The position numbers and the translations under genes were made by a program. Under the pieces are notes generated by a model. That model did not search any database. It had not been told where the DNA came from and was given only the letters and a program-made list of their open reading frames with translations. Source: Marsupella aquatica (Eukaryota; Plantae; Marchantiophyta). Taken from it: DNA of 64,000 bases. The stretch is taken from assembly GCA_973895155.1 (NCBI GenBank), contig OZ316893.1, forward strand, positions 12,416,359 through 12,480,358, read 5' to 3'. The number at the start of each line of letters is the position of its first letter. Positions within the stretch are counted from its first letter, which is position 1. Positions 30,395 to 57,512 of this stretch are shown piece by piece.

Positions 30395-31530
30395 GCTCTT
30401 CGCGATTTTTCTCTTTGCCATGGTTTTTCTTTGCAATTTCGAGGGCATTTATGGAAACGGATGCTGAATGCTCTTCGCGATTCTTCTCGTTGCCCATTTT
30501 TCTTCTTTGTATTTTTGTGCGCATTTGTGTAAAGTGTGATTTACTACATTGCCACCATTTTTTTTATCCTTCTATTTATGAAATTGGCACTATTTTTGTC
30601 CGTGGGTAAAAAACAAACAAACCCAGTTTAGCTCCTCGGCATCTAACGGTCATCTGTGTTCCCCCTGTCAAGATTTGATGGCGTCGGATTTCCTCACTCT
30701 ATTCGATTTCCTCACTCTATTCTTTGACCACGCCCAGGTCAACTGGCCCAAAAGGGGGGTCGCCTGCCCGCACTGCTCCCCTTCTCGGCCTTGCCCTACA
30801 GCCCGATGCAGTCGTCATGACCCACCTTTGGGCCAACTGACCCGAGGGTGCTCAAAGACGAGACTGAGTGAATCTGACACCATCAGATCTTGGCAGGGGG
30901 AACACAGACAACGGTTGCTTGCTGAGGAGATAACCTGGGTTACTTTTCTTGACCCACAGACAAAAATTAGTGGCAATTTAATAAAAAAATTGGTGGCAAT
31001 GTATGTATTATGCAACAAAAAGATATCAATGTAATACATCTGAGTTTAGGGAAAGGAATGCTTAATGCTCTGCACTATTTTTTTTTGCACCATTTGTCTC
31101 TTTGTAATTTGGAGGGCATTTGTGGAGAGATGTTCTTCTCTATTTTCTCCTTGCCATTTTTCTCTTTGTGATTTTGAGAGCATATATGGAAACCAGTGCT
31201 TAATGCTCTTTGCCATTTCTCTTTGTAATTTTGTGCGCATTTATGGAAAAGAATGCTTAAGGCTCTTTGCTATTTTCTCTTTGCAGTTGGGAGGGCATTT
31301 ATGGAGAACAATACTTGATGCTCTTGACTATTTTTCTCTTTGCCATTTTTCTCTTTGTAATTTTGAGAGCATTTATGGAAAAGAATACTTGATGCTCTTT
31401 GCAATTGTCCTCTTTGCCATTTGTCTCTTTGTAATTTGAGGGCAGACATGGTAAATAATGCTTAATACTCTGCCATTTATCTCTTTACCAAGTTTTCTTT
31501 GTGATTTTGACTGCATTTATGGAGAAGAAT
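30395..31530. repeat. Degenerate ~60-bp repeat array interrupted by a foldback element
   Basis: Units CTCTTTGCCATTTTTCTCTTTGTAATTTTGAGAGCATTTATGGAAAAGAATGCTTAATG at 30395-30530 and 31050-31530. Confidence 0.8.
30545..31003. mobile_element. MITE/foldback element with ~200-bp imperfect inverted arms
   Basis: TACATTGCCACCA pairs with TGGTGGCAATGTA; TCTGTGTTCCCCCTGTCAAGATTTGATGGCGTC with GACACCATCAGATCTTGGCAGGGGGAACACAGA; GGTCAACTGGCCCAAAAGG with CCTTTGGGCCAACTGACC. Confidence 0.85.
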
Positions 31531-32468
31531 GATGAAGGGCCAAGATTTAGATGGCTCATTCTGGAATTTCTCTTGTACTTTCTGTTTTTCCAAGCGGCAC
31601 CCCCAACTTCAGTTATGCCCTAGAGTCATGGTTAGAGGTTTCGCCCCGGATCATAGACCCTTAATAGTAGCTTTCAATCAGACTCACCCTGCCCCCATTC
31701 TCCATTTTCCACACACACCCCCAACTTAAGTTACACCCCAAGAGTCACAATGTGGAGGCTTTGGAGTACTTGAAGAGTAGCTTTTGACAACAATTACAGA
31801 GTTAGATTAACATCTTGTCACCTGAGCCTTATGGACAACTTAGCACTCAAAACTTGAGCTAAAGCCTATAAGCACTACTGCCCTCAATGCCAGTGAACAA
31901 AATGTCACTATATACAAAATTATTGACAAATGCTGCACCTTCTGCAATTTATTCTCTTTTAGATTCATGATTTGTAAAGTTGAATATCCACTATGTTAGG
32001 AATTGACTCTATGTTCTTAACTCTAGTGAGTTTTGTCTCACTAGGGTCAGTTAACTCTTGATTAATTAGGAATAAAGTCCACTTATTTAGGCTCACACAT
32101 CTTGGCCCCCTTGGGGGGTATAGGTGGGAGGAAGAATATTTTCTTCCTCATTCTTCACATGTGTATTATCTCATGTTATGGATTGTTCAAAAGTTCTTCC
32201 ATCATGGTGTCTTGACTCTCATATTCCGTTTATGTGTTGTTTAATCTGGACCCGTCCAATTTCTTGCACAACATATATACAATTACCTCTCTCCAAGTGC
32301 ACAACCTATAAGTGCAAACATGGATAAGTACATGTCGTGCGCATACACATCGCTACACAACATACATCGCTTGTCACATACATCCAAACATAGTCACACT
32401 GCCACATCACAAACACAAGAGAATGGAATACAAGTGGAACTCATGTCCACACATGTCCAAAACCCACA

Positions 32469-32480
32469 ATCGCCCCCCTA
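32469..32480 (-). other. Putative polypurine tract preceding the 3' LTR
   Basis: Minus strand TAGGGGGGCGAT followed directly by TGTGGG..., ~170 bp after the pol stop. Confidence 0.55.
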
Positions 32481-32643
32481 GCTGGGAGTAAGGTCCCCTA
32501 ACTCTAGCTAGCCATGAGTTCTACAAGGTTGATATACACCTTTTTAGGTGTGAAGATCAGGAGGCCAAGTGCAAGTGGGCCCCATCGATCACCTACCTGC
32601 AATCCATATCTGCCAAGAGAACACAAATGATAACTAGTCGGTT

Positions 32644-32790
32644 TCACCGACACTGAGGACACAACCATGATCCACTAGGAATCACCTACAATGGTGGTGT
32701 CAAACATGACATGTGCCATCCTCTAGAACACTTATCACAAATTAATATAGTAGCTGCTCCCTGAGAAGATCCACACAACATACATTTCAA
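32644..32790 (-). other. PHD finger at the integrase C-terminus
   Basis: CMLC-GSSQGAATILI-CDKC-SRGW-H-MS-C-LTPPL*VIPSGSW-L-CPQC matches Cys4-His-Cys3 with the conserved Trp. Confidence 0.9.
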
Positions 32791-35700
32791 GCCAGCACGA
32801 ACATGTGCCAAGCTTGGATCTACTGTACCATCAATGTTGGGAAGGTGACATGGTGCATAGTTGCGCACATGATCCTTCCAAACCATACCATCGCGTCCCT
32901 CCAACATCAGGACACCAGAAGGCAACACTTCACGCACACGTAAGATTGTCCGGCCTGCGGTCACATCAAGTGTCGTGGGTACTGTCTGCTGCAAATAAAC
33001 ATAATCACCAGGATGAAATCGTCGAATGCTTGCACGATAACCTCCTCCACGAATAGTGGCATACCTCAAAGTATCATGATGTTGGGCAATGGCAAGGTTG
33101 TCAAAAGCCATGGGCATCACTCTCTGAAATACCCGTGCTCTCTCTGAACACACCTTGACCCAAACATCAGGATCATCCAAGTTCACAACTGGTGTAGCAT
33201 CACGACGAATAGCTGCTGGCAAATCTGGCTCTCTACCATAGAGCAAAAAGTAAGGTGAAAAAGATGCAAGTGATGCTTGCCGACTGAAACGGTAGCCCAT
33301 AGCTAACCAAGGTAGCTGGAGATCCCAATCTCCCAGATGACCAACCTGCAAGCCATACTTACGCAATCCTCTCTTCACAGTTTGCACAACTCTCTCAGGT
33401 AATCCATCTGCCTCAGGATGATCACGAGAGGTAGTACGATGATCAATCAGAGCTTGTTCACACAAACTCTCAAACTCTCCACGGAACTCAGTTCCCTGAT
33501 CAATCAACACCTCAACTGGTGCTCCAAAATGACTGAGTACACGATCCAAAAATGTAGCAGCAACTCCTCCACTGGCTTTATCTGGCAACACCACTAGCTC
33601 AATCCACTTGGAGAAGTGCTCCACCATGACCAAAACATACCAATTATGACATTGGGTAAGAGGTAATGGACCAGCAAAATCCAAACTCCAACGATATCCC
33701 AAACCCATGATCGGCAACGGGTGCAACTGGGGAGTGGGAGCATTAAATGATGCTCTCACTCTATCACATACCACACACTTAGCTATCAATTGCTGGACAT
33801 GAGTGTGCATACCACGCCACCAATACTGTATCTGCAGCAAGCTATAAGTGCGCTTCACACCAAAGTGACCCAACTCCTCATGTGCATGTCGCACCAAATG
33901 TACTCGTTGTGATGGTTTTGGTACCACCAACACCCTACCATCATGCAGTACTCTTAAAAGATGGTTTCCCTCCTATCGAAACCTCTTGGCTCTCTGTAGA
34001 ACCCTGTCACATTCTTTGGCATCAACACTGCCAACAATAGAACCACTGCGCAGATATTCCAACACTCTCACATCATTGTGAATATCTTGTTGTCCAAAAG
34101 TTACCTCACCAACATCCACATCTGAAGACTCATCATCCACTCCATCCAATGAGGTAGAGTCCACAGATCCACTGTATGCTGGCACCCAACAAAAAAAGGC
34201 AGATGCATGCCATCCTGACACCATCTCCTTATCTGACTCATCATGCCATCTGGCTCCAGTCTCATCCTGCTGACTGGTACATGGATTGCGGCTTAATCCA
34301 TCTGCATTCAAGTTCACTTTTCCAGGCCTACGCACCACCTGGAAATCATACTCCTGTAACAACAATGCCCATCGTGCAAGCTTCCCTGTAAGCTTGTCAG
34401 ACTCCATTAACCACTTAAGAGGCTGATGATCAGTGATCAAGGTGAAGGGGTTACCAAAAAAGTAGCAACGAAAGTGTGCAACAACCCACACTGCTGCCAA
34501 ACACTCTCCCTCATAAGAGCTATACTTAGCCTCTGTTGAATTGTTTGATCTACTGGCATAAGCCACAACAAACTCATTCCCCTCATCATCCTTCTGAGTC
34601 AGCACTGCTCCAAGTCCTACTCCACTCCAATCAGTGTGTAACTGAAATGGTCTGCCTGAAATGGGTCTTCTCAAAATAGGGGATGATGCCAACCTTTGCT
34701 TCAACTCCTGAAAGGCATGCTCCTGGTCATCACCCCAAATCCATTCTTGATCCAACTTAGTGAGTATGGTCAAAGGTTTAGCAAGCTGGCTAAATCCTTT
34801 AACATACCTCCTGTAGTAGCTCGCCAATCCCAAGAATGCACAAACTCTACTCACATCAGTAGGGCAAGGAATCTGGGTAATGGCCTCCACTTTAGTCTGC
34901 TGTACACCCAATCTCCCTAGGTGTATAGTGTGGCCCAAATACTCAATTTGGTCTTGAAAGAACTTACACTTGCTAGGATGGAGCTTCAACCCATGTGCTC
35001 TCAATCTCTCCAACACAATCTGCAAGTGCTGTTAATGTTCTTCCACAGTAGAAGAGTAGACCAAAATATCATCAATATAACATCTGACAAAATCCAAACC
35101 TGCAAGGATTCGATCCATGACTCTCTGGAACTCAACTGGTGCATTCTTCAACCTAAATGGTAAGAATAACCACTGATACAAACGATCTTTGCCATAAGAA
35201 TCAATCCCCCAGAATGTTGTCTTGGACCTGTCAGCATGCCTAATTGGAAGCTGATGGTACCCTGCCCTCAGATCCAATGAACTTAAAACCTTTGCATGCC
35301 CCACAGCATCAAAGATTTCCTCAGGTGTGGGCATGGCATATCTATCAGATTTTGTCTGGCGATTAATGGGTCTGTAATCACCACACATGCGCCTATCTGT
35401 GTAATTGCCATGCACATCCTTCTTGGCTGGCATCACTGTGGCACATGCATACTCCCCATATGAAATCTCCACCAATCTAGCCTCCAACAAATCTTGAGTT
35501 CTACTTTGAATCAGAGCTCTCTCCATGTCACTATAACAGTATGGCCTATGAAAGATTGGCGCATCACTAGCCAATTCAATCTGAATACCAGGACCCTTTA
35601 ATGTCCCCAAATTCTTCATGCTAAATGCAAAACAATTCCAGTAACTCTTCAGGAATCGATGCATGCGACGTCTCTCCTCCCCTGTCAACTTAGGGCCAAG

Positions 35701-35979
35701 CTGTGGTTCCCAACTCTCCACCAAATCCCTAATATCTCTTTGTAGGGTAGAAGAGATAGCCAATGATTGCTATTTAGCAGTAGATTGAGCAGTCCCTTCC
35801 TGCTCAACAATCTGTCCAGCCTTGGCCAATCCTGCCATAGGTCCATGGACTATCTGCTCGACCCCAGCTGTGGTCAGTACTGTCTCAGTGGACCGCAAGC
35901 TCACCAAGGGACAATCAGTAATTCCAGTAGAGCGCATCCGCAACTGTTCAGCTACTCCCAAGCTGATAATCCAAGTCAA

Positions 35980-36910
35980 ACAATTCAGGTCCATTGCTTG
36001 ACCAAGAACCTGGCGCCGCAACCCCTCTGACACAGAGGCAACTGCAGTGGTGCTAGTCAAAAATCCTATAGCACGCTCTCTCTCATCAGCAGTAGGTTCC
36101 ACTAATTGTTGGAGAGCTGTGTCCCACACAAGTCCAGGGCCACCTGCTCTGAATGCATATGAAGTAGAGCGGCTTACAAGAGTGGGTAATGCACAACGTG
36201 GGCGCCCAACTACATTGACCATTGCCAATGGAGGTCTATCAGGTTGGGCCACACCCTGTGCACGATGCCCTGGATCCAAAATATCATCCACCACTAAGGC
36301 GGGTGAGCGTGGAATGCTGTCAAATGCACGCTTCAGCACCTCACATGGGATCAAATTAGTCCACCACAAGCGTGGACGATGTGCACAAGAACCCACACGT
36401 GCAGCATCCAATAACACAGCAGGTCCAATCCAAGACCTCACTTGGTGAAAACTAGCAACAATCCGACTATGATCATCACCGAACAATGGCACATTCTCCA
36501 AAATGTATGTTGGAGACTGTGTCTGATGTAACTGGAGATGATGCAGCACCCGTAACATCTCCCAAAACAATGCAGAGCGTGGATCATAAAGTCCATGCCC
36601 AACGCCAGCTCTAGATTGGCCCTGACATGGCCAACCAGCAATCACCAAATCAATGGGGCCAACATGATGCAGATGATCCGCCCCCAACAATAAAATATCA
36701 GCAGGTAGTGCATGCTGATAACCACGAACAACATCCACTGGTAGCAACTGTGGATATCTATCCACCAACATAGTCACATGTCGCAATGAGACCCTCCATG
36801 CTGTCTCATCTGTCTCCACATACAAATAACGACGAACAAGAATTCCTGCCTGAAGAACAGCAGCCAATCCAGTGCTAATCCCACCAAAAAGATCCAACAA
36901 AAAAATACCC
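35980..36910 (-). other. C5 cytosine methyltransferase domain (DNMT3-like) within pol
   Basis: Motif I LLDLFGGI (~36880-36900), II YVETD, IV IDLVIAGWPCQ (~36625), VI ILENV (~36495), VIII AHRPRLWWTNL (~36370), IX ERERAIGF, X RRQVLGQAM (~36000). Confidence 0.92.
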
Positions 36911-39150
36911 TCCGGTGGATATTGCCAAGCAATAGGAGTGGTATCCAATGGTGAAAGAGTCACAGGTCCATCTGCAAGAGACTGCTCTGCTCCTGACTGT
37001 GGTGTAAAAGCATGACGCCATGCATCATGTACCAATCGTGCTGTTGCCTGTGACAAGGCCTGTGCACTGCCCCACACTGGTGGCACAACACTGCCAACAG
37101 GTAATCCTCGCATGATGTGCTCCTCATGAGACTCCTCCAATGGTGGAACATCTGCTGCATGCACATTACCCTCAAGCAAATCATCAGGTCCAGCAATTAC
37201 ACCACTGAATGCTACCAAAGACAATGGTGTGGATTTAGGGCCTCCCCAAGGTCCACTAAATCTCACTGGCAATTTGCTCAATCGAGCATCTCCTGACTGC
37301 CAATCAGGTCTATATGACACTGATTCCTCCCAAAAATCAAGAATAAATCCCATGGGGTAGAGCACTGTACATCCTACCAACACATCATATGACTCTGCCT
37401 TAGTCAGAATAGCTCGCGCCTGTATATGTGAGCTATCTGTGGTATGACCTTCCTGAATCCTCAAATCAAGAGGTCTCCTGGTAATGTGCTGTGTAGGTGT
37501 AGGTCCCCCCAATGAAGTCTGAATGGGAAAGGGACAATCCTCCAAATCCTCTGGACGCAATCCCAATCCACGTATGACAGACTTTCCCAACATCAAGGGT
37601 TGAGCACCAGTATCAAGTAACACCCTCTCTGGCTGGTACACTGCTCCAGAAGGCCCAACTAATCGAAAGATATCACTCCGATTATCCAATGATACAACAT
37701 TAGGTTTAAACCTAGTCCTCTCAAATGCAGGGCGTGCTGGTAAATCCACCAATCTTGCTGCTGTTGCATGCCATGTCTCACTAGTAGTAGTAGGTGGCAT
37801 GGTCTTCACTGCTTCAAGACTGCAAGTTGCTTCTGCATGGGAAGCAACCACTGGAGTGTGCTCACAGAGTGTAGCTGCCAATCTGAACACTTCTGCAGGA
37901 CCAACTCCCAAGTTCAGCATGTCTGTCGCTGAAAATAATGGGGTGCGTACCATGGCAGTAGCCGCCCCTAGCAGGGTACCTGTCATCCCTACTGCATCAC
38001 TACCTGATTCTGCCAACTTACCCACGCCAGGGTTTGTTCGAATCGGGTTCATAGAGGCAGTCTGAACTGTCTCTGACAATGTAAAAGACTGAGGAAGCTT
38101 TGTCTGTCGACGTGCATCCCCCCTCTGTGGATCTAACTCCACTACTGCTCCTCGGGGCTCAAGAGCTTTGGCTGCCCCACGTGTCAAAGCTGCTGATGCA
38201 TCAATATGTGCAGTGCCACACATGAATCCCATGGGGGCAAGGTCTCCATCAGCTCCATAAGATGTGGAAGGACCATGGGATGTGGAAGGTCCATAGGATG
38301 TAGATGCCCCATCACCAGAATTAGGTCTCACCTGGGAACTAGCCATGGCAACTAGTTGTTGCTCCAATTGAGCAATCTTAGCATCCTTTGGATCTATGGT
38401 TACAGCAGGGGCAGCGTCACCTCCTTGTCTCCCTGCATGTGGCATGCCACGACCACGTCCATTACCTCTACCTCCTCCTCCTCCTCTTCCCTGATCATGT
38501 GTACGGGATCCTCCTCTCCGTAACTCAGGGTGGAGTGAGAAACACCTATCTTTGGTGTGTCCAGGAGCTCCACAGTGATCACACTGTTGCTGATCAGGCG
38601 CTAATGCTCCCCCTGATCCTCTATGATCTGGGCAATATCTCTGTGCATGATCCCCACCACAGGTCCAACATCCTGACTGCTGTCCAGCATAAGAGGGCAC
38701 AGGTCTCTGGCTAGTAGACTCTCGTGCAGTAGGCTTCTCCCTCTGGCTCTTTCGTGCAGTAGGCTGTGGTGTGGATGTAGATGCAGCCTTTGGTGCTTCC
38801 TTGGCAAATCCGGAAGTCACCACCTTCTCATTCACCATATTGAGCTCAATGCGCTCAAAAAGGGTAAAAACAACTGCTAATGTGGGATCTGCATCCCTAA
38901 GCAGAGTGACATCTCTCACTCTGCGTCGCAATTCTCTATCCAGAATTGCATACCAAAACTGGACTGCCTGAGCCTATGTCACTCCCTTGGTGACAGTGAT
39001 CAATCTGCGCATACGAGTGTATGCCTCACGTAGACTCTCTCTAGTCTTGCGCTGGAACTCCTGGAGACCCTTCAACTTATCAATTCTCACACCTTGATAG
39101 TTCTGCTTTAGTACCTCAAAGAATTCCACCACAGGGTTAAATGCTGGCAA

Positions 39151-40218
39151 GATCTAAGGGCGGCCAAGAAAGCCCAAGATGAACTGCGGATTAAGCGGCA
39201 TGAACTGAACATCATGCAGGGGCAGTTGGACACAGCGTAGGCTGATAATCAGATTATCAAGGATAAATTGACTCAGACCCAGGGAGAATTGGCCGACGCA
39301 ATCAAGGACAGGGAGAAATGGAAGAAGGAGCTGAGAAACGCAGATGAGGCCCATATAGCAGTCAACAACCGGGTCACGGCGGAGACTCAGAGAAGGGAGA
39401 GGGCGTTGAAGGGGGAGCTCGAGAAAATCCACGGAGTCCTTGAGCAGAAGGAGGCCGAGTTAGGGAAATCCTATCAAGGGATTATTGCGCTACAGCAGGA
39501 GCTTGCGTCCCTGACGGCCAGCTTTAAGGCCGACCTGCGGGAGAAGGACGCCCAGCTCAACCAGACTTATGCCAAGATGAATAACATGGAGTCTGAGGTC
39601 GTAGCGGAGCTCGACAAGGAGCTAAGAGCAACCCGGGAGGAGAGGGCTACCACCAAGAAGGAATTGGAGGAAGCCCACAGGGAATTGGAGGAAGCCAAAA
39701 ACGAGCTGGAGAAGGCACGTAAGGACCTGGATGAGACCCAGGAGGAGTTGGAGGAAATCACAAGGAAGATGGAGAACCTACAGCGGCGGGCCGACAACCA
39801 AACTGAGCGGCTGAAGAAACAAGCCGCCGTATTTAAATGCTTAGCTGCATCAGGTCCATCTCCCGTTGGGGCAAACCAGTTACCAGGGGTGGTAATTACC
39901 GAAGGACCAGCCGTGACACACGGCCCGGTGCCAAACATTGGCGGCAAAGGGAAGGAACAGGCTGTGGAGATAGTGAAGAAGAAGAAGCGGAAACCTTCGG
40001 GGTCCAAAGGTTATTCGACCCCTCAAGCCGTACTCAAACCAGCGCCAACCTCTGGCATGAACACGACAATAGATTCCGCTATCACCAAAGGTGGGGATGG
40101 CGCGGTCCAAGCCGAACTACTCAGTAATGAGGCCGGTATCCCAGATCCACCTCTTGAGCAGGCTGGGGAGACAGTGGCTGAAGCCGAGGCTGAGGCCGTA
40201 GCCGAGAATGATTCCTGA
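39151..40218 (+). pseudogene. 5'-truncated coiled-coil ORF, antisense within the second retroelement
   Basis: E/K/L-rich heptads (ELEEAHRELEEAKNELEKARKDL) and a KKKKRK patch. The frame continues upstream of 39268, through one TAG, to the junction at ~39150. Confidence 0.6.
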
Positions 40219-41259
40219 GCCGATGCCGAAGCCGAGGGTGGGCCCAGTCAGGCCGATGAAAAGTTGACTCGGTCAGAGGCAGGTAATCTGTCAGAGGACG
40301 GACCAACGGCAGTGGTTGCGGAGGAAGCATTGGGGGCGTCCATTGAGGATCCACCACCGGTGTCGTGACGGTGCAAGGGCGCCATTCCTTTTAGGAAGGG
40401 CGGACGTGGAGGTAGGAGGCGTGAGTGGGCAGGGCGGGCGTTGATCTCCAAGTTTAGGATTAGGATCAGGACCAGGAGCGGCCCTGACACTTAGCTTAGT
40501 GGGATTGCGGTTCCACTGGTAGGAGCAACACTTGTGCTCCTGCCTTGCTGTACATAGGTAGTTTCGGGCAGGTAGATTACTGTTCGGTAGATTAGGCTTA
40601 CGTTGCAAAGAATTAGGCGGATCCACTACCAGGATAAGTACCTGGGCAGCGGGGAGCCAAGGGCCTCTTCTTTAGCAAGTTTTTAGTTTGCACCAGCCGG
40701 GCTGGGATCAAGTAGTAAGAGAAGCTCTCGGTTAGTCATACCGTGACCTTGTGTATATTCATGTTTCCTCATGCCTAAGAGCTGAATAGAGTTGGCCTCA
40801 CGGCTTAGTTCGCAGAGCTTGTGTATGAGATGTACTGTTTGTATGGCAAGTGCATGGTATGACTCAGTCAGAAGGAGTCATTTTGCTATTTGTGTGTTGC
40901 ATTAACTTGTGTGAAGAGTGCCCACATCTACCAGAAGGAAGGAAAGTAAACAAGGGAGTGAGAGTTGGATGTGTAGAGCTGAGAGAGGTCTTAGCGGCTT
41001 AACCAAGCCTATTGGGGATCATTCCGGCGGCGGAATCCAAACATACCTAACCAGAAGGAGAGGAAGACAAGGGAAGGCCTAGATTAGGCCGGCTACGTAT
41101 CTCATGACCCGATGAAGGATCTGTCCAGTATATGTGTGTAAAAGGCTAATAGTAATAGTAGGAGGAGGTTAGCAGCGTCCCATGCCGCTAAGCCGCGGAA
41201 ACGGCCTCGCCAAGCGCAAAACCTGCGGGAATCGGCTTGAGCTGGGGGGTTTCTTGGGT

Positions 41260-44250
41260 TTAGGGAGCCATGGGACGCACCACATCCGCTGACCAGGGAA
41301 TGATAATAGTGGGGATTCCAAACCGAAACTGCCGTTTGCCCCAATCACTTGTGACCTTGGCCACATACAACCATGGCCTGCCAATTAAGATGGGAAAACC
41401 GTAGGGCCGAACGGGTCGCATTACCAAATAGTTGAGGGGAAAAGATTTTCCCCCAATCATTGTTGGAATCTTGGTGAGACACCCCAGCGGCACCACCCGT
41501 GCCCCATCAGCCAGCCTCATGGCACGTGCCGGTGGTTCTAACTCCGTATACCCCAACCGGTTTGCTGTCTCCTCAGTCATAATGTTGACTCCCGAACCCC
41601 CATCAACCGGTACAAACCGTATCGCACATCCGTTGATGTCCACCGTGAGTTCTGGGGCACCCAAATCCTCCGTGACCCAGTTGACTTGTATGGGGTCAGC
41701 CCCAACTTTGGGTAACCTTCTTCTACGTCTCCTCCTCATAAGAATCTCCTTGACTTGGCGGCGGTAGAGGGAGCTATCACGTAGCAATTGCCCAATTGTG
41801 GCACTGACTGGACAATCTAGAATATCTTGAGCAATGTTGTACGCAGTTGCAGGAGGTATGGGTGGGATGACCTCCTCTCCTGGTTTCCAACGAACAACCT
41901 TCTCCTCCGCTTTCTTTCTGGCCTTTGCCTCCTCTAGGTCTTTGTCAATGGCCGCTTGCATGGCTTGTGCTTCTAGCTCCTCCAGCTGCTTGCGTACCTC
42001 TTCTCCCACCTTTGGGTAGAACAACTTGGGGTTATCCCGATCAAAGTCGCTATCTTCCATGGGTGGCACCTCCGGTTCGTGTGAGGTGCCCGATGTGGAA
42101 GCTTGATGCACCTCCTTGTACTTCTACTTGAGTTCAGACTTGTCCTTCTTTTTCCCAGACCGAGTGGAGACCCGGTAACAAGAGTAGTGTCTCCTCTCAT
42201 CATCACTGTCCACCTCCGGCAAATTTTCAGCGTGAGTCCACTCATGACTTGGGGACCGTGTGTGCTCAACAACTTCTGAAGTGACAACGACCACCAAAGG
42301 TGCCTCCACAACTGGAGATACTACAACGATTGATGGTACTAACTCCTCCTTGATGGTGACCAGCCTCTGCTTGGGAACGTCAACTACGGGCTCTTCCCGT
42401 TTTGTGACCAACTCCTTTGCAAGGGTGAACTCAAGCGGGTCAACCGCTTCCGTGGCAAGAAAGTTGACGTTAGCTTCTTTGAGCGGGGGTGGTGGTCCCT
42501 TCTTCTCCGGTCCTCCAGCTTGTTGAGCCTTGATTGCTTCCAAGGTTGGACAGTGTGGTGCAAGATGACCCTCCCCCTTGCACAATTGACACAACCGGGC
42601 AAAATCTCCGTTCCCTTGACGTGTGGGCTCCGGGCACACGTTAGTGTAGTGGCCAGCTACTCTACAATTGTAACAGATAGGGATCTTTCTTACTCCCGGA
42701 TACGGTGGCCTATTCCCGGAAGTAGCGTTGGAATAGTTGGCATATGGGGGTGCTCCAGCGTTAGTCGAGATCCCATGAATGCTCCTTGGTCCCGGGTTGA
42801 GCGGCTGCACACTATACACATTTGCCTCCGGTGGCTCCTCCATGAAGTACTCGATTGGCCCCTCCGTTGCGTAGGAAGAGGTTGAGTAGCTAGCTCCTTC
42901 TACGTCCTCCTCCCGTACTTGGAAGACCTTGGCTGGTTCTCCCGCTGGACACTCCTTCGGGGCATGACCAAACTTCATGCACTTGGTGCACCACACGTTG
43001 GCTCTCTCTACTGGAACCTTTCTCCTCTCTGGCTTGAGACCTGCAAAGTGCACCTTCAACGCTTTCATTTGCTCTGTCAACTCATCATACCTGGCCTCTT
43101 GCTCCTTGAGACGTCTTGCCGTAGACAATGGGGTAACGGCCACCGTGGGTAGCACAACTTCTCGATGAGTCAACTTCTTGGCCTTCTTGGACAACTTCTT
43201 CTTCCTCTTCTTTCGCTTCTCAGCTTCTGACTCCGTAGTGTCTGACTCCGTAGTGCTCTCAGAGTCCTCGGATTCATCACTACCATCTGACTCGGATTCA
43301 CTTGATTCCTCACTAGTGGAACTGTTCACAGGCTTCAACTTCTTTCTTCGGCAGCGCTTGCTCGTGGCATCGGCGGCAGTGTATGACTCCGCTGCTGCAA
43401 TAGCCTCAGCCAATGTGGTTGGCTTGGCCTGTCATACAAAGAACCCCATCTTGCTTGGTAGGGCAGCTACAAACCACGCTTGTCGCATAGCATCATCGGT
43501 ACGGGCTTGTATCCGCCGTACCAACTTCTGGAATCTTTGCAAGAACCTCCGTAGCGACTCTTTCTTCTTCATCCTAAGTTGACCCACCTTCAACAGGGAT
43601 GTGGCTTCCACTCCAATAGATCGGAACTCCTTCAAGAATGCTTGCTTGAACAAAGCCCAATCAACCTTCACGTTGGGTAGCAACGAGATGAACCATGGCC
43701 CTGCCTCCCCCCTCATCATTCCGGGAATGATAGTTAGCTTGTGGGCAGATTCTCCATTGGCTTCAGCGATCCCTTCAAATTCTTCGATCCATTCGTCTGG
43801 GTCATCTTTTGGTCTTCCCTTGAAGGGTACGTACTGAACACGGGTACGTTGTGCAGCTGCCATCGGTGCAGCTGGCCCCCGTATCAACACCGGCGGTAAT
43901 GGCGTACGTTGGGCCACCGGTAACAGCAATGCTGATAGGTGTGAGATGATTTGTGGCAATGCAGTGAGCTCTGGGATCAGATTTGGCCGTAACTCAGACT
44001 GTACCAACACAAAGGGCTCCCCTTCTTCTAGCATGTGATCTACGTCTGGCTCTTCGTCTGGACGTATGGCCTCGTTGTGTTGAGACCCTTCTTGCGGCAC
44101 ACCAAATTGTTCTTCTAGCTCTCGTGGCAACCTCCTCTCTTCTGCGAGCCGTAATTGTTCTTCAGCAGCAACCCAAGAGGACACTCGGTCTAGCTCAGGC
44201 GTACGTGAGTGTTGGGGGCTTGCTCTCCCTCCCCTTCTTCCTCTCGGCAT
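41260..44250 (-). pseudogene. Gag-aspartic protease ORF with two in-frame stops
   Basis: Retrotransposon gag (PFKGRPKDDPDEWIEEF..W..FKQAFLKEF..ESLRRFLQRF), three CCHC knuckles, protease VDGGSGVNIM..ILIGRPWL. ORFs 43432-44250, 42124-43413 and 41260-42111 share one frame. Confidence 0.85.
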
Positions 44251-44466
44251 CCCATTGAGACCTGCATGCCAAGCTCACGCAAAAATATCACCAACAAATC
44301 TTCCTCAAACATCAACCATCGCAAGTTGCATTGTGGTTGACATACAATCACAGAGTAACCAAGAAAAACTTCTCAAGTATCAACCGTCGCAAGTTGCGTT
44401 GTGGTTGATACGCTTGAACTCCAAATAGACGTAGCTCCCCTCCTCCTGCAACCAAACAAGGAGAAG

Positions 44467-44486
44467 GATCCCCGGCAGCGGCGCCA
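44467..44486 (-). other. Primer-binding site complementary to the tRNA-Asp 3' end
   Basis: Minus strand TGGCGCCGCTGCCGGGGATC, near-identical to the Athila-type PBS TGGCGCCGTTGCCGGGGA. Confidence 0.85.
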
Positions 44487-45699
44487 AAAACAAGGACCTC
44501 ACTTATCTCACTTGCCTATCCAACGATTAATACGTGCAAACCATACTTTTCTTTGCTTAAACCGTTGGTATCGTATTACGGGGTCGTGGAGGGACGCTAT
44601 TTGGAAGATTTTCACACCTAAGGATGAGTATGTTTGATTCCGCTCCCGGAAGTGTACTTTTTGATCAAGTCTACCAACTGGTCTCTCCGTTTTTGATCAA
44701 GTCCAAGGGACTGGTCCTACCATCTACAACTCATGCCCACCGGGTGAGTGCTGTCACCACCCCCCTCTCGTGGGCAAGCATACAAACGTTTACAATAAGG
44801 TTTGAACACTAGTGACCAGGGCAAATGTTTCCACAACGAAACCGACCACATGCACTAGGGGAGGAAAACAAACAACACAAGCAACAACAAGCCAAATAAG
44901 CCAAATAAGCCAACAAGCCAAACTTAAGTGACACAAAATATTGGAACCTCAAGCCAAATCCATATCTCTTGGTGTTTCCCGTAACACATGCAAGGACAAC
45001 CCGGCCTCTTGCCGTCTGCCCAACTCCTGCCTCCCTAGCCTGGGACAAGTGCTACGTTCTCCACCTCACTACTCTGGCTTGAACTTCACCTAATCAGTGC
45101 GCTACTCACAAAAGCTACTCAAAAGCATCAAAGCACTATGCTGAGTTCCCCCCTCACTACTTCGGGGCTCTCCCCCTAAATACCAAAAAACACACCAAAG
45201 CACCCCTCACGGGGCCACAATGATGGCGGCTTACCCTAGCGGTGTCGCTAAACCCTTCACTAAGAAACCTTTAAACTAAAAGCATGCGGCACACACATGC
45301 TTCTAAAACCCTAAACTAACTATGGGACTGACGGTGCCTTCGACGGTGCCCCAACATCGCTCCGTGAACCGCAAAAAAAAACAAGGGACCCCACAATGGC
45401 CGAAACTAGGTTCCCTTCCACTTGCACTTCTGATTTCACCCATGGATAGCTCTCCCCCTCCTGATCACGAATCACTCAACCGCTCTCGAAACGGACATCG
45501 GACGACCAAGTTATGGCCGTTTCCGTATCCCGTAACCACAACTTTGTCGGGCCATAACCTGCTCATCCTGGCTCCGTTTGAGGAGCGCCACCCCTTGTTG
45601 GAATCAGCTCCGCGAGCTCTTTCCAACAAGCCCGTGAGTGACCCCTCACAAAAAAGTTGGAAAGTCCAGGGGCCGTACAACCACGTCCGTACGACCACC

Positions 45700-47578
45700 C
45701 TAGTCCTCCTCATCCTCACTCACGGTGCCATGGCTTGAGCCCCGTGAGTTGGTCTCCTCATCACTCTCCACTGGAGTGAGTGCCACTTCACTTCTCTTCT
45801 TCTTTACCGTGGTACTCCCTGTGCTAGTGTTCCCCTGCTTTCTCAAATTGGCCAAGGCCTGCCACGCCTTAATGTACCCCTCACCAATGGTGTCCTTCCA
45901 TAAGGCCGCCTCTTCACCGGACCGCAACTCCAACGGTAAAATCTGCCCGGTGGCCATGGGAGTCCCAGGGGTGATAGATCGGGGTAGCATCCCCGGGGTC
46001 CCCGTGTTGACCTGAGCCTCTCGTAACGATTTACGTACCTCCCTGAGCTTCTTCTCTAAGCTCTTGCTTTTCTCTTGACTCTTCTTGGCTGCATCCAACA
46101 GGGGCCCATACTTCCCACTGACTTCCTTCACCACCATCTCAATGGCCCTGGAGATCAAATCCGGGGAAAGTGTGGAGCTAGGTGTGCAGGGGTTCTTCCG
46201 TTTCCCCAGACTCAAGGCTTCACTCCTCTTAGCCCTTGTCTCAAAGATCACCAATTGACTCCGTAGTGCTCCCACCTGGGCTCTTAACTCCACCATTTCT
46301 CCAGAATTCTGCTTCTCTTTGGCCAATGCTTGTTTCAATACTCCAACCTCTTCCGCTTCCTTGGCCTTGGTGGACAAGGCTCCCTTCAAGTTGGAAATCT
46401 CTACGTGAGCTGCTTGGAGAAGTTTAACCTTCTCATGAATGGCCTCCTCCTTGGCCTTGATCACCTCCTTCATAGACAAGGCACTCTGCTCCAAAGTCTC
46501 TACTCTGGCGGTGGCCTGCTTGAGAGAATCTCTCAATGCATGGACTAGCTTGAGTCCCTCATGGACTCCCTCCCGGAATTCCCGTAACTCCGCCAGGTAG
46601 ACATCAGGAATGTCATAGACCAGGGGCTCCTCCGGATTTCCCACAAGTGATTCAAGCCACTCCAATGTGGAGTCCTCATCCCGGTTTTCTTCCTCTCTAT
46701 TATCATCTCCAACCGCCGAGGATGATCCCTCCGTTAGTTTTCCCAAGATGGTAGTGGCAATACTCCTAATTTCCGTGGTAAGGGATGATCCAGTGTCTGC
46801 CTGTCCCGGGGAAACAATCCACCCTTCTGCTCTGGCTAGCAAAAATGACCCCATCAAACGTACAGCCCCACCTGGTTTCACACTCCCGGGATCGGCGTCC
46901 AGTAGCTTCTTCAACCCGTAGTACCACCATCTGTACACATGGGCTGGATAGTTCTTGATGTCCATATATAGCTACCACGAAGTGCTCTCCATTCACCACC
47001 CCTGATTGCACGTTACCAAGGACCCGTTGATGAACCTTGGCCAGAAATCCCTTGTGCTCAGCATCCTTGACGGCGGAAAGAGGGATGGAAGTAGTGGAGG
47101 TGGGATTAATCACCCAACCGGCCACCATCATCAATGTGAGCTCTCCCCTTATGTTCCGAGGTGTGAATGAGAATTGTTGGTTCTCTAGAAACAGAAGCTT
47201 AGCTAACTCTACATGGGGCACTACCCGTTGGAGACATTCAAAGTAAATTCCTTCCGTACGTAACTCCATCCCGGCCCCAATGTTCCAACTCTTCCCCGAA
47301 GGGATTGTAATCTCCACCTTCATGAACTCCGTGAGCCCGGTGGCCAGAAAAATATTCCTACAATCCTCCATCACCTTGGCAGAGGTTTTGGGATAAATTT
47401 GACGAAAAACCTTCCTCATAACCGGTGCTGGACTTGCTGCCGGTCCAGTACTCATCGTAGCGTCCCTCTCTTCTCTTTCTCTTGCAATCAATGTCTCAAC
47501 GTAGTCACGGTAAGCAGCCTTGTATCTCCGAATGCGTGCCTCACTAAACTCTGGTTGATCCAGCATCCATGCATCCAA
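45700..47578 (-). pseudogene. Retroelement accessory ORF (globular N-half, coiled-coil C-half) split by one frameshift
   Basis: Overlapping ORFs 46766-47578 and 45700-46965 join at an (AT)n run at ~46963-46970 (GCTATATATGGAC). Confidence 0.6.
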
Positions 47579-49148
47579 AAATCCAATCCTCGATCACCAA
47601 ATCCCGTTACCCGTAGCAATGTCAATTCCCTGGCCCAAAACGGCCCCCGTATCCCAATCAATCAATTACTCTCAATCCCCCCAGAAGCCACTCCGTGCTG
47701 CTGCCGCTAATGCCCGGAAGAATCAGGCCACCAAGCCCCACCAATCTACCATGAGAGAGAGCTTCAAAAATAATTAGAAGGTGGAGAGAGCTTTCGGCAA
47801 GGTGTTGGGAGAGAGCTCGAGTTTTGCTTTCGGCACGGAGAGGGTCGTGCAAAAGAGGGAGAAAAGAAGGGAAGAAAAACAAAAAACCCCCCCCAAAAGC
47901 CTCCTTTCGCCTTGCGCCCCGGTGCCCTCTTTCGCCTGGCGCCCCGGTGCCCTCCTTTAATGGCCCTCCCCGGTGCCCTATGCCCCCCTGCGCCTCACTC
48001 GCGGGAGCCCTAAATGCCCTGGGCACGCAGCCCTATGGGCTCGCCCCGGCCACCTCGCCATCTCCCCCCTTCTCACGGGAGTCCCTGCTGCGCTCTCCTT
48101 TAATGGCCCTCCCCAGGCCCCGATGCCCCCCTGCGCCTCACTCGCTTTGGGCCCAGCTCCCGGTACCCTTCCGTAGCGCTCCCCCTGGTATGGGGAATTA
48201 AATTCCCCCCTTCCCTTTACTCCCTCACGGAGAGTTAATACTTTCCCCCCGACTCCTTCCTTCTCCTCGGCTGTGGCTCCGGCTGCCCTTAAATGGCACG
48301 CGGCCCTATGCAGGGCTCGCGCTCATCTTTTCTTTTTGGGGGGAGAATTTTAACCCCTCCGGCTCGCCCCCGTAGCGCCTGCTTGTCCCGCTCGCGGTCT
48401 TCGTACGCCATGGCCAAGCCTGCTACTCGCGGTGGCCCTTCAAACGGGGGATTTAATTCCCCCCGGCAGCCCTCTCCGACTTGCGGCCACCCCCGTAGCG
48501 CCTCACGGGAGGGTTTAATACCCCCCTCCTTTTCTCCTCCGCCACGGCCCCCGTAGCGCCTCGCCCCGACTGCCCTTACTCAGCCTGGGGATTCCACATG
48601 GCGGCTCTAGGGCTGCCCTTTATGGGCCCCCAAGTGCTCGCCCCGGCCACCTCGCTAGTACTCGCGGTGCCCCTTAAGGGGAAATTTTAATTTCCCCCCC
48701 AATACCTCGGTGCCTTGCGGCTGCTGCCGCGCCTCACTTCCTTCATCTCGCGAGGGCTCCTTAATGGGGAATTTTAATCCCCCCCTTCAGCCTTACCTTA
48801 ACGCTCCTCCGGTGGCACCTCGCTTTTCCCATATTCAGTAAAGGTTAGCACTCCTCCTAAACCTTATTGGGGTCTCAACAAAAGAAAGAGGGAATCAGGA
48901 CCTAAGGGAAACAGGGTGTCCACTTAGACCGACCCTAGTGTCAAGGTCCCAACATCCTGCTTGCTGGGGAGCCTTAGGCCTCCAAACTATTAGGATATCC
49001 AAGAATGTAGAGACCTCCGGGGCATAGCAACCCATAATGACGGTCGTAACAAAAAAACAAAAAAAACGGCTTATTTACAATGGTTATTTACACTCGCAAC
49101 ACTGCGCGACCATTATTCATGATTTTGAGTGACGGGGACCCCGTCACA

Positions 49149-51177
49149 CCTGATGACGAGGAGAACTGGTGACTGAGTCCTCGTCGGAATCACTGTTTGA
49201 AGGTGCACTGCTGACTGCTACCAATGCCGCTAGCCGAAACTGTGCCCCACTCCGAGTGAAACCGGTCCGTCGTCCATCGGGTAACCCAGCAGCACCAGAA
49301 GAATCCGTGGTGACCAACCTAACCTAATCTATATGCTAACCCTAAGGGCAATCTGTCCCTGTCAGCAACACAAGCACTCACCATGGTGTGTTGGGCATCA
49401 TTCCAACATCACCAGGAGAGAAATACGTAGCACAACTAGAATGTCCGGTTGCAAACCCGGATCACTCCTATAGAATCAAGCGCCCACGCCAAACTAACAT
49501 GGCGCATAAACAGGAAGCATATGTGAAGAGGATCCAATCAACAAGAAGAGATCCACAATAACTCTCCACATCAATAGTTATCATACATCAATCAAACAAT
49601 GTTTATAATGTTCAATGTGGGGCCTTCATAATAGGACTCTCAATGTTCAATGTCGTAGTTAAGGATCCATGCTCAATTGGTTCAATCCATGTATCTAGAT
49701 GGATTCAGAAGCATCAAAAACCTTACGGGAGCTTATGATTTGCCCCAAAATGGCAATCTAAACAAACTAGTATGTGTATAAAATGCCTAAGTGCTCATTC
49801 CATTAACATCAAAGTGGAAAGGAGTGTGTGTACACAAGAGCACTTAAGAACCACATAGTTAAGCGTGTGGGGAAGGAATAGCTTTGGGATGGGTGATCTC
49901 TCACTTGTAGTTATGCACCAAATTGGCCGCTCCAAAATCAGCAGCTTGCAAACTACTCCTCACGTACCAGCAAGCTTGCTGGCCTGCCCGCTCCTGCTCC
50001 GCCCTCACGCCCCTCATCCCGAGTAACGCCTCAAAGCCTCAAAATGCCAAGATGAGCCAAAGAGTGGGGGCCCTTCACGCCCGCTACGCCGGATGTGACT
50101 TCGGGTTTCGACAACATTCAGACTTCCACCCTTTGTTTCCCTTTGCAAAATGCACAACAGCAGCGTGGCAGCATTTAGGGTTCCGCGACAACATCGACGT
50201 CTGTTCAAACGCTGCGCCAGACCGACTTTCAGATTCAGCGACATTCAAACTTCGCCTTCACAAAACGCATCAACGTTCCTGGCGGGTGGCTGCTTCCGGA
50301 TCGGCGCATGATGGTCGCTTCGGATCAGCGCCAACAACGTACAGTCTGCACCGCCAAATCAGCAACATGTAACAGTCATTTCCTTCACAAAAACGTGGTT
50401 GTTGCTCCTACTCGACAGCCATCTCGGTTACACTTAGCGCCGCGTCCCTTTGTGAAACCATTGGAACCATTGGAGCCAGATTCGGCAACATGCAATAGTC
50501 GTTCCCTTCTGAGAAATGTAGGTTCAGTGTGCGGAGTGCATCGGTCTTCGGCTACAGATCCAACAACATTTGCCGGATCGATCCCTTTACATGCGGGCGG
50601 CAACAACACACTGTCCGATCGCAAATCAGCAGATCGAACATTCACAGAGCACAGCACTCGATAACCTCCAACTCCAGATCCGCTCAAGAATGAAACTCAC
50701 ACAATCTCAACTTGGATCCACATACCGGCGATCCAATCAAGCAATACGATGCACGATCCGAGATACCACGAACCGTTGTCGAACACAATCAAACTGAAAA
50801 TCGAAACTCTGTCCAACAACAGCAGAGTCCGATGCCTGATCTGTCAATGTAATCTCGCTACAATCGGCACAACGATCCCGGTCAACAATACCCCATCGAT
50901 CCCGCATCGATCCGATCACACACGTATGTCAAGCCAACGCACCTTGCACTACTCAAGGAATCCACGTTACACAAGCGGAGCTCACAGCCACCATAGCCAC
51001 TCAAGCTCCTCTCTCTCCAAGGCTCAACATTGAAAGATGACCTTTCAATGCCTCACAAGTGACAAGTACCCTCTCACACAAACCTGACAGAACCTTATCG
51101 GCTCATATAGCACACATACCAAATATACGGATCTAGATAGTACGATACACTCTAACACTACCTAGAATGGTGTGACA
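49149..51177 (-). mobile_element. Probable 5' LTR/leader and gag N-terminus of an interrupted LTR element
   Basis: Candidate TG terminus TGTCACACC at 51177. An open frame ..GRRTGFTRSGAQFRLAA..SDSDEDS.. at 49149-49325 is cut exactly at the second element's terminus. No matching second LTR seen. Confidence 0.4.
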
Positions 51178-52534
51178 TACAAGATGTTCTGTTTTTTTTC
51201 TGTGGAGTTTTAAGTGCACAACATGCAAAAATAATCTGTTAAACAACAACAATAATTTGATGAGTGAAAACCCTTGATAATTGTTCTGACTTATTGGTAA
51301 GCGCACAATTTCCCCAACAATTTCATCAGCTAATACTTCCTGATAAGTGCATGGCAATTTTCTGAGTTAATGCTGCACTTATGGGCTAGGGGCACGCAAG
51401 GATGGACAATTTAGGGTGGGAGCTTCAGAGAATGTTCACTGACTCCCTTAACATTTAACCATACACTCTTATCAATACAAGCTTAATTGCATGTTTTTTC
51501 ACTTATCATGTAGTGCAAACTCTCTTCTAAGTGCACAATGGATGCTTTCCCCCAGGATTGTGCTGAGCAAGACTACGGTATCACACTGCCCCAAACAGAA
51601 AGTGCCAAACATCCCAAAGGCTACAGACCCAATAAAGGGAAGAAATCAAGGTAAAAATCCAGGAGTACCAAAGAGCTCTCCAAAATGCATTAGAGTAGGT
51701 GGCAGTCCCTTGGGAGGTCAGATTCTCCAAGGATATGATGTCCCACAAAGCAATCAGCACCATTGGATCTTCTGACATTAAATGAGTATTGTTGGATGTG
51801 GTGATCTAGGGTCTCAAAGAAGTGAGGAAGGTGACTGATTTGGTACAAAATATCTTCTGTCGTCCTTTGTATAGGCAGCCAACCCAAATCTTTGGTATGA
51901 GTCTGGGAAAAATTCACTAGTAGAATTTGGATTGGTTGTATGGATTTAGAATAAATAGCTCGACTTTGATAAAAACACCATTTTGAGATTCCATCCAAGT
52001 TCAAATGTCGGATCACGATCCCATCCAAGCTTATGGCTCTGCATTTTGGTTTATGATTAGCCACTCCCCAAATGAAAAGTTTACTTGATAGGACCCCTGA
52101 AGTTTTAGGTACATTGATTCAAGGTCTCTCAAGGTCAATCAACGGTCTGGATCACTCAGGGTTCTATAAGCAAAACTTTTCATTTTGGGGTCTCATCAAG
52201 CAACCTCATTTGTACACCAGTGACATTTTGCCTCATTTTGGTGCCTTATATATATGAGGGCCAACCACATTTTTGTGGCTAATAATTATCACCTCGACAT
52301 GAGTATAGTCTACAATAGAACCTGTCTTGTTGAATGGGGTGAACAGAAAGTTGTAATGCATTTAAATTCTCACAGGGAAATTATTTACAACGATTGACAA
52401 TATCGATGCATATTAATGTCGAAATCCGTACGACTTGTGATATGGCTGCCCGCAGCCCGCGGCCATTGCCCGACACTAGAACGAATATAATTACAATTAA
52501 AAGAGCCTGACCAGCTGTGCAGCAGATGCTGCCT

Positions 52535-56746: not shown

Positions 56747-57512
56747 CTCGAAAATCCAATTCAATTTCAAGCTACGGAGAAATTCCGATTCGACCTCAAA
56801 TCCTCTGCGGCTCTTCCGATCTCGTCACTCTTCGTGCGACGATCACTCTACTCTCCCATCCTCCGCCTGCTCCTCACGAAAGAATTGAGAGTACCATCCA
56901 ATTCTCTTTCTCCTCCTCCCTAAAATCGACCCATTCCGCTCAAAAACTTGCGGAAAAACTCCAGAACCAGGAGACAACTGAAGTCCCTTTTCTCCCTCCT
57001 TGTCAATGTGCTTCTACTCTACTGAACTTTGCTCCTCTCCTCTCTTCTCCTCGGTTTCCTCGTTCCTCCTCATCATCTTCTCTGCTCTTCTCGTCTCCTC
57101 GTTTTCTCTGTTTTCTTCTCCGTTCCAAACCTCAGTGCTTTGAATTGCAACTCTAGGGTTCCTGACTTCCTGACAAATCTAATCCCACACTGTCGATATT
57201 AAATACTCGATTCTTCTTAAATACGTTCGAACGTTCCTTCTTCCACTAAACAAATCAATCCTGGCCATTCAAAGAAATCCGTGAGGTGAGAAGCTCCCTC
57301 AGATCACGATCCCCGCGATCGCGTAAATGATTAGTTAACGGGTGACCATGGTTGAACTGCTTACTTACTTAAGTGTAACTGCAGTAGTGCTGTCGCCGTC
57401 AGCCTCCGTCTACCAGTGAGCTTCGCTCTCTCCTGAGCAACGACCGGCTATCACCGGTTGAGAATGTTCTTGCCTGTCCAGCTGCAAGTGACTTGTGAGA
57501 ATGACCGGTCAT

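Follow-up and report, generated by a model that had tools for sequence, protein, structure and literature searches.

Structure of the element and its surroundings

The window, that is, the whole stretch of 64,000 nucleotides that was analysed, carries on its minus strand a Ty3/gypsy retrotransposon running from 51177 to 32333, which starts with TGTCA and ends with CACGACA. A Pfam search and translation gave the minus-strand domain order Gag–protease–DNA methyltransferase (DNMT)–reverse transcriptase (RT)–RNase H–integrase–PHD, and a single minus-strand frame, from 39150 to 32686, holds everything from the Gag knuckles through the PHD finger. We are highly confident of the identity of the element as described here. 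Its features are the following (TSD, target-site duplication).

51178..51181, unstranded: TSD of 4 bp, TACA on the plus strand, in the 5' flank; the same 4-mer lies at 32329-32332
50840..51177, minus: 5' terminal unit A, beginning with TGTCA; placed by alignment to unit A of locus L027 at a similar offset, with the TSD adjoining; inner end approximate
50839..50850, minus: candidate self-priming site at the end of A; 11 of 12 bases complementary to 51027-51038 within A, against 0 of 300 control zones
49149..49290, minus: remnant of the gag N-terminus, severed by the nested element; tblastn to L010 gives 39% over 44 aa (E = 1.6), weak alone
39157..49148, minus: nested unrelated LTR element of about 10 kb, sitting in gag; LTR start TGTGAC at 49148
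37700..39150, minus: gag with two CCHC-type zinc knuckles (~38670 and ~38583) and a stop at 38974-76; 58% to Marchantia protein P0004
37480..37635, minus: aspartic protease core, LLDTGA at 37620; PF13650 E = 0.007, below the Pfam cut-off; a protease probe from the intact locus L014 matches
35950..36915, minus: DNMT3-type C5 cytosine methyltransferase, motifs I-X; catalytic Cys at 36627-36625
35764..35772, minus: conserved stop and readthrough context, TAG CAA TCA; from comparison of same-clade loci
35665..35763, minus: predicted long-range stem 3' of the stop, arms at ~35763-35743 and 35683-35665; suggestive
34924..35400, minus: RT core (YIDD), interrupted by a stop at 35032-34; PF00078 E = 6.5e-16 and 3.8e-7
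34348..34737, minus: RNase H; PF17917 E = 4e-36
33415..33915, minus: integrase, zinc finger and DDE core; PF17921 E = 2.9e-16, PF00665 E = 1.7e-12; stop at 33973-75 just upstream
32686..32784, minus: PHD finger, truncated by the stop codon 32686-88; PF00628 E = 9.5e-6 over profile positions 1-32 of 47
32473..32478, minus: G-run (polypurine tract) abutting unit B; from comparison of ends with relatives
32333..32472, minus: 3' terminal unit B, ending with CACGACA; one copy, giving the insertion form A-coding-B
32329..32332, unstranded: TSD of 4 bp, TACA on the plus strand, in the 3' flank

The order Gag–protease–RT–RNase H–integrase with a DDE integrase is that of Ty3/gypsy elements, as are the TG...CA ends, the TSD (4-6 bp in such elements) and the polypurine tract. 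The two full direct flanking LTRs of this group are absent, and the window copy has the arrangement A-coding-B. Only two candidate 8-mers for the 5' end occur within 20 kb upstream. The initial annotation had placed the methyltransferase inside Pol, in frame with Gag and protease upstream and with RT downstream. The upstream part of this description stands: the two zinc knuckles and the LLDTGA motif lie in the DNMT frame, the protease match (E = 0.007) being below the cut-off. The downstream part has to be amended. RT is in the same frame, but a TAG at 35770-35772 closes the ORF before it, and the DNMT, rather than being embedded in Pol, ends ORF1 (Gag–protease–DNMT), with RT, RNase H, integrase and PHD finger behind a conserved stop. 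The C-terminal PHD finger (PF00628, E = 9.5e-6) was absent from the earlier description.

Besides the conserved TAG, four stops interrupt the window copy, at 38974-76, 35032-34, 33973-75 and 32686-88, and a further TAG at 39154-56 falls on the border of the nested insertion. The host element lacks about 130 codons of gag at this insertion; the severed gag remnant (49149..49290) shows the motif GFTRSG...DSDEDSV. Because of the four other stops and the nested 10-kb element, the window copy (32333-51177) is dead and unable to be active.

The nested element (39157-49148, minus strand) has a very long 5' region, about 4.6 kb, with two unassigned ORFs (45700-47593). Near 44470-44488 lies a tRNA-type primer site, presumably Athila-like, and a gag-protease region (44274-41260) is present, with no RT. 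It also holds an antisense coiled-coil ORF (39241-40218). Its 3' LTR was looked for in the window and was not found. Elsewhere, an intronless N-myristoyltransferase gene occupies 55367-56824 on the minus strand (PF01233, PF02799). Its CpG ratio of 0.92 is not depleted, and its exact protein has no identical entry in the protein collection searched. A host gene with introns lies at 27300-29700, also on the minus strand, and its stretch 27900-28010 is presumably alpha-crystallin (Hsp20)-like. Two repeat regions complete the picture: an array of 35-bp repeats that are ~60-76% alike (21250-22420), and degenerate repeats of 57-75 bp (30400-31530) around an 86-bp inverted repeat (30615-30946), which possibly represent a small DNA transposon.

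Identity of the methyltransferase domain

The domain had been described as an uninterrupted C5 methyltransferase with its motifs in I-to-X order. This holds, as 36915-35950 is unbroken and contains every motif named: LDLFGGI near 36897, YVE, GWPCQ with its catalytic Cys at 36627-36625, ENV at 36498, HRPR at 36381, ERERAIGF at 36084 and LGQAM at 36003. The domain matches PF00145, the profile proposed for checking it, with E = 3.4e-9. Comparison of the single sequence with the PDB placed DNMT3A first (E = 8e-15), against 4.5e-6 for HaeIII and 0.011 for DRM. A profile compared with solved structures gave 1.5e-28 for DNMT3A, 4.5e-16 for the best DRM-type structure and 3.7e-10 for HhaI, and the tRNA methyltransferase DNMT2 gave 1e-6 versus 1e-28 for DNMT3A. 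The structure model of the domain has a pLDDT of 96.8. In a Foldseek search with this model the top folds were all DNMT3 (DNMT3A, TM 0.71/0.81). The target-recognition region is longer than that of DNMT3A and aligns poorly with it. A search of the Atlas returned generic C5-methylase clusters only.

DNMT3-type enzymes are recognized by non-permuted motifs I-X with PC, ENV and RxR, and these are found here together with a DNMT3 as the nearest solved sequence and fold. The suggestion that the domain is DNMT3-like rather than DRM-like is therefore well founded, DNMT3A being best by sequence, profile and Foldseek. A DRM identity was rejected, since the circular permutation is absent and DRM aligns only to the N-terminal part of the DNMT profile.

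Relatives, selection and phylogeny

A search for longer proteins gave 39 matches, made up of 18 Marchantia polymorpha models, Calypogeia fissa, two Sphagnum species, Mesostigma, Closterium and 16 others. A search for proteins of near length gave 175, and the 120 listed add M. paleacea, Riccia sorocarpa and S. tenellum, as well as one match tagged as a bacterial MAG that is probably mis-binned. The presence of such elements in land plants, a point raised by the initial annotation, is confirmed by the named Marchantia, Calypogeia, Riccia and Sphagnum proteins. No vascular plant was named in three word-limited protein searches, in which most matches carry no organism label. In a representative library, 235 clusters (50% identity) carry the domain at E < 1e-30. 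Among the best 150 of these the DNMT lies between RNase H and integrase in 80 and between protease and RT in 17, the other 53 being too short. Twenty of the best 150 representatives were looked up; those named are Closterium (twice), Klebsormidium nitens (GAQ93235.1) and Scenedesmus, which has the second domain order, with the DNMT between RNase H and integrase. The 80 representatives of that order (RT-RH-DNMT-IN-PHD) lie within P0047-P0189, with Scenedesmus as their single named member. The group is probably chlorophyte, and a description of it was not found in the literature searched.

The metagenome loci analysed are the best 80 of 434. One family among them matches named Sphagnum proteins, and no viral contig was found among 58 candidates. 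In a second family from the same metagenomes (L034-L080) a single ORF holds both DNMT and RT; the family has split ends of the same kind, and its motif IV is without the usual Pro ahead of the Cys (42 of 42). Among the proteins, P0323, a transcriptome-derived EukProt entry with the order RT-RH-IN-PHD, groups in the RT clade of the window, a hint that a member of this clade is transcribed. The ORF2 cluster P0320, whose integrase-PHD part shares 96% identity with L014, has 226 member sequences; it is an abundant and well-preserved family.

Several observations bear on whether the DNMT could be a functionless passenger or a recent capture, with the stop before RT as a mark of decay. The death of the window copy would suit such a reading, and so would the dN/dS values of up to 0.53 reached within families (0.25-0.53 in five pairs of decayed copies). 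Between lineages, however, the dN/dS of the DNMT is 0.12-0.23 in eight pairs and undefined in two saturated ones, which indicates the purifying selection that the initial annotation had asked about; RT gives 0.04-0.08. All of these are rough estimates by the Nei-Gojobori method at high dS. Every locus retains the catalytic Cys (22 of 22 and 42 of 42, 64 in all), as do all 80 proteins of the second order and 206 of 210 proteins, and the Glu of motif VI and the Arg of motif VIII are nearly invariant. The domain occurs in the 235 clusters, the RT and DNMT trees are congruent, and the intact copies share the stop. The passenger or decay reading is thus largely refuted by selection, tree congruence and stop conservation, and we regard it as very improbable. 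A one-off capture or a misassembly, against which the initial annotation had cautioned, is likewise not borne out, the DNMT being stable in this Ty3/gypsy family and carried by other loci and proteins.

The trees in question are quick and unrooted, and comprise element sequences, with no host DNMT sequences or host outgroup. The clade that carries the stop is one group both in the RT tree (98 rows, SH-aLRT 98) and in the DNMT tree (168 rows, FastTree 97), and the two domain orders split apart in both. The DNMT is co-inherited with RT, and one origin for all the Gypsy-DNMT lineages is likely. Identity between Marchantia and Sphagnum, considered with a view to horizontal transfer between the two, is 88% for RT and 73-74% for the DNMT.

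A conserved stop codon between methyltransferase and reverse transcriptase

In the window, the TAG at 35770-35772 lies 77 codons past motif X. The stop is present in all 24 same-clade loci that span the DNMT-RT junction, in addition to the window, at 13-20 codons upstream of the RT anchor; these loci are not independent and represent about six lineages, between which synonymous sites are near saturation. In 23 of the 24, CAR-YY[A/C] follows directly: CAA CCC in 19 (the peat-moss family), CAA CCA in one, CAG TTA in two and CAA TCA in one. The exception is L025, where another stop occupies the CAR position. The window itself has CAA TCA, and the strict form CARYYA is found in the window, L010, L014, L015 and L024; the CAA CCC of the peat-moss family is one letter off the canonical motif and is followed by ATG (19 of 24 loci). 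The second codon after the stop varies between Ser, Pro and Leu across the six or so lineages, and the YY[A/C] base pattern is kept. The background frequency of the context is 0.5-0.6% of in-frame positions. Since the stop is carried by 24 of 24 loci, and its context by 23 of 24 versus 2 of 309 distinct decay stops within RT-integrase, it belongs to the design of the element and is not a result of decay.

Intact sequences show the same layout. L014 is unbroken, with an ORF of 1369 aa, one TAG and an ORF of 1047 aa in the same frame. Many of the proteins in databases terminate 77-162 residues beyond motif X, among them Marchantia P0004 and Calypogeia P0005, and in the Marchantia, Calypogeia and Klebsormidium copies the stop is deduced solely from such protein ends. 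Four sequencing runs contain thousands of contigs of the family (4560 in X1), and none of the 40 differences listed, out of 250, falls at the stop.

We consider it very probable that RT and the domains behind it are made by stop-codon readthrough. UAG-CAR-YYA is the readthrough signal of TMV, for which transgenic Arabidopsis gave an efficiency of 6-10% and a transient assay 32% (PMC2754532), and a conserved in-frame stop in the CAR-YYA context, the mark of programmed readthrough, is what is found here. A predicted stem extends from about +10 to +75 to +115 after the stop. Its sequences fall into two classes, and pairing of the arms is better within a class (-14 to -26 kcal/mol) than across classes (-6 to -15). 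The stem is a hint of a readthrough stimulator, because it forms in six of eight wider folds and its shuffle z-scores are weak (-2.5 to +0.3). Folding of short local hairpins 3' of the stop gave no signal.

Alternatively, the stop could be real and conserved, and Pol could be made by splicing or by downstream re-initiation. The ATG that forms the third codon after the stop in the 19 peat-moss-family loci could serve the latter, and gene callers place the starts of ORF2 proteins near it. Yet the other lineages have TTG, GTG, GAG, CAG or AGG at this codon, both ORFs stay in one frame despite linkers of 75 to 133 codons, and under splicing the CAR-YY pattern would be left without a reason. This makes splicing or re-initiation improbable, and readthrough is retained as the preferred reading of the stop.

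The arrangement is not shared by all relatives. The sister clade has DNMT and RT in a single ORF, with a stop-free RT frame at 20 of 39 loci; the remaining ones have frameshifts or scattered stops, one of which is recurrent. P0331, within the wider clade, is also one ORF. Since the sister clade, P0331 and the 80 of 150 representatives with the RNase H–DNMT–integrase order do without it, a supply of DNMT at the level of Gag is not required throughout the lineage. Three Klebsormidium-type proteins (P0098, P0102 and P0319) share an endpoint about 20 residues after motif X, a hint of a separate recoding site right behind the DNMT in that clade.

Terminal repeats and integration

Relatives of the element are found in two forms, A-coding-B-A-B at 12 loci (nine distinct after near-identical pairs) and the single-B form at another 12, to which the window copy is added. 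The G-run adjoins the first B upstream in the relatives. All ten internal B|A joints examined have the sequence ACA-GC-TGT or one close to it, and insertions begin at the TGT and finish at the ACA of this joint. Among nine loci with both ends, the 4-bp TSD is exact in six, has one mismatch in two and is absent in one; it is exact in the window. No TGG-type tRNA site follows A in the five loci examined. In these loci the stretch after A is complementary to the middle of A over 17, 15, 15, 11 and 10 bases, whereas the longest match among 1000 control draws has 11 bases.

The element would thus appear to behave like an LTR element whose LTR is B+A, inserted in permuted form. By self-priming, reverse transcription would produce a linear cDNA flanked on both sides by B+A. 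The ends of this cDNA would then join into a circle, which integrase would open at the internal ACA-GC-TGT palindrome to give A-coding-B-A-B. This form requires prior end joining and would therefore derive from a circle or a head-to-tail dimer that integrase cuts open at the palindrome; it also seems to be the sole form with redundancy for further copying. The A-coding-B form can have several sources, namely the cutting of both internal joints, a one-LTR circle or later recombination between the two B units. Circles are commonly seen as dead ends for LTR elements, and A-coding-B copies can form without one. Nevertheless, the split ends, the 4-bp duplications and the self-priming site taken together point to integration from a circle.

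Proposed role of the methyltransferase

From these comparisons, the element seems to represent an old Ty3/gypsy lineage of green plants, in which a DNMT3-type methyltransferase forms the end of ORF1, before a conserved stop. The account that we favor, and hold to be moderately likely as a whole, is that Gag–protease–methyltransferase is made in bulk, that Pol is made by readthrough, and that the packaged enzyme methylates the cDNA of the element before insertion. Active copies would make RT, RNase H, integrase and PHD finger through occasional readthrough; at roughly 6-32%, as for the TMV context in plants, the methyltransferase would be several times as abundant as RT. The protease of the element would free the DNMT inside the particle, and the enzyme would methylate the extrachromosomal cDNA, perhaps the longer-lived circle, ahead of insertion. 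If extrachromosomal DNA is the substrate, a new copy would arrive already methylated and resemble host repeat DNA. CpG depletion (0.28-0.70) was rejected as a sign of self-methylation and is uninformative on this point, because the nested element, which has no DNMT, is depleted as well (0.62); the measure does not tell self-methylation apart from silencing by the host.

One could also imagine that the DNMT acts on host chromatin, riding the integration complex and, with the PHD finger, marking the insertion site or nearby DNA. The PHD finger lies at the C-terminus of integrase in both architectures, and the DNMT immediately precedes integrase in the 80 of 150 representatives (the best 150 of 235) with the second order, which would fit such a role. 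In the clade of the window, however, the DNMT lies in the abundant Gag frame, separate from integrase, and a single insertion site would need few copies of the enzyme; we therefore regard an action on host chromatin as unlikely. A DNA-binding or structural function within the particle, such as tethering the ends of the cDNA for circles, or the methylation of element RNA would in turn agree with supply at the level of Gag, with the long and poorly aligned target-recognition region, and with the inactivity on DNA of the K. nitens domain in yeast (PMC5890265). Against a structural part stands the near invariance of the catalytic Cys, the motif VI Glu and the motif VIII Arg, and against RNA the DNMT2 score, far below that of DNMT3A (1e-6 vs 1e-28). 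We give these two roles a low probability.

More tentatively, and with a good deal less confidence than the account above, a single Gypsy-DNMT3-PHD lineage may extend from chlorophytes to bryophytes, the bryophyte branch having readthrough-based loading of DNMT at the level of Gag, self-priming and an obligatory circular cDNA opened at the palindrome. If so, this would be an LTR element that truly integrates from circles and pre-methylates them, and the capture of a methyltransferase would be tied to circular intermediates, as in DIRS elements, in the genetic model Marchantia.

The 2018 study that described retrotransposon DNMTs left their role open and concerned algae with few genetic tools (PMC5890265). 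At least 18 annotated gene models of Marchantia polymorpha belong to the present family, so that the role of the DNMT could be addressed in a model plant with methylation mutants. The stop, if read through, offers a first handle on dose, apparently far more methyltransferase being made than RT, and the split ends with true integrase footprints suggest a circle-based integration route. Gypsy-DNMT elements escape LTR finders and appear in annotations as hypothetical genes or as a host 'DNA methyltransferase', so that the DNMT counts of bryophyte genomes can come out too high.

Comparison with known systems

Readthrough has precedents among retroelements and viruses. SIRE1 has a readthrough ahead of its env-like gene, and gag-pol recoding was reportedly treated by Gao et al. 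in 2003. MuLV uses readthrough between gag and pol (PMC3159437). The likeness to TMV-type readthrough lies in the identical six-base context and in a candidate extended stem that starts ~7-14 nt past the stop (PMC2754532, PMC3159437), but the TMV-type cases described there are viral replicase genes, whereas here the stop follows a protease and a captured enzyme. Self-priming in place of a tRNA primer and occurrence in mosses recall Ty3/gypsy elements of the Tcn1/Tf1 type; unlike the present element, Tcn1 elements, compared by description, have chromodomains and ordinary LTRs (PMC6317226). The accessible text of that plant LTR survey mentions neither PHD fingers nor methyltransferases nor Marchantia. 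PHD-bearing Gypsy elements are known in Chlamydomonas.

Other retroelements carry methyltransferases. EpiLTRs and DAM-LTRs are LTR elements that combine one with a chromatin reader, but the DNMT in them is the sister of DNMT4 and comes with DAM and a chromodomain, and in the text available their authors set streptophyte Gypsy-DNMT3 apart (bioRxiv 10.64898/2026.05.21.726589). SymbioDIRS-Dnmt3 shares with the present element a retroelement Dnmt3, A-coding-B-A-B ends and a proposed methylation of cDNA; according to the main text of the 2018 study, the DIRS-borne Dnmt3 domains, including that of SymbioDIRS, methylated CG in yeast (PMC5890265). It has, however, a tyrosine recombinase where the present element has a DDE integrase, TG...CA ends and a 4-bp TSD. 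DIRS or Ngaro membership was rejected, as a DDE integrase and a protease are present and a tyrosine recombinase is not.

The closest system is KnitGypsy-Dnmt3 (de Mendoza et al. 2018, PMC5890265), described there as having DIRS-like repeats, a DNMT in the RT ORF and an acquisition in the K. nitens lineage; its Dnmt3 domain gave no methylation in yeast, a result that the authors call inconclusive. The two share Gypsy domains, a non-permuted Dnmt3-like domain, DIRS-like repeats and purifying selection. The initial annotation had rightly warned that the concept is not new: K. nitens GAQ93235.1 (P0098) has the same Gag-knuckle–protease–DNMT order, and its DNMT is 38% identical. P0098 and two relatives also terminate just past the DNMT. 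The A-coding-B-A-B form is found in relatives of both bryophyte-type clades, the window having the shorter A-coding-B. The differences are that the bryophyte branch, so called after the nearest named relatives of the element, occurs in land plants, that its DNMT closes ORF1 at a conserved readthrough-type stop, and that it has a PHD finger, a domain with no mention in the main text of the 2018 paper (PMC5890265). A DNMT in the RT ORF is found in the sister clade but not here (stop in 24 of 24 loci), and because of this the element is seen as a variant of KnitGypsy-Dnmt3 rather than the same family.

Marchantia, liverworts and mosses are unmentioned in the main text of PMC5890265. Two later papers of the de Mendoza group refer to Gypsy-DNMT3 in 'streptophytes', and their main-text passages name no land plant; a liverwort genome paper mentions no methyltransferase. 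The literature searched, which left most subscription papers outside it, contains no description of Gypsy-DNMT3 in land plants or chlorophytes and no report of readthrough at a Gypsy-DNMT3 stop; split ends with a DDE integrase were found in it only in the 2018 figure (PMC5890265). With relatives in Marchantia, Calypogeia, Riccia, Sphagnum, Klebsormidium, Closterium, Mesostigma and Scenedesmus, the element therefore looks like a land-plant branch of the KnitGypsy-Dnmt3 kind and not a new capture; its novelty would lie in the likely readthrough stop behind the enzyme and in the likely unusual route of integration.
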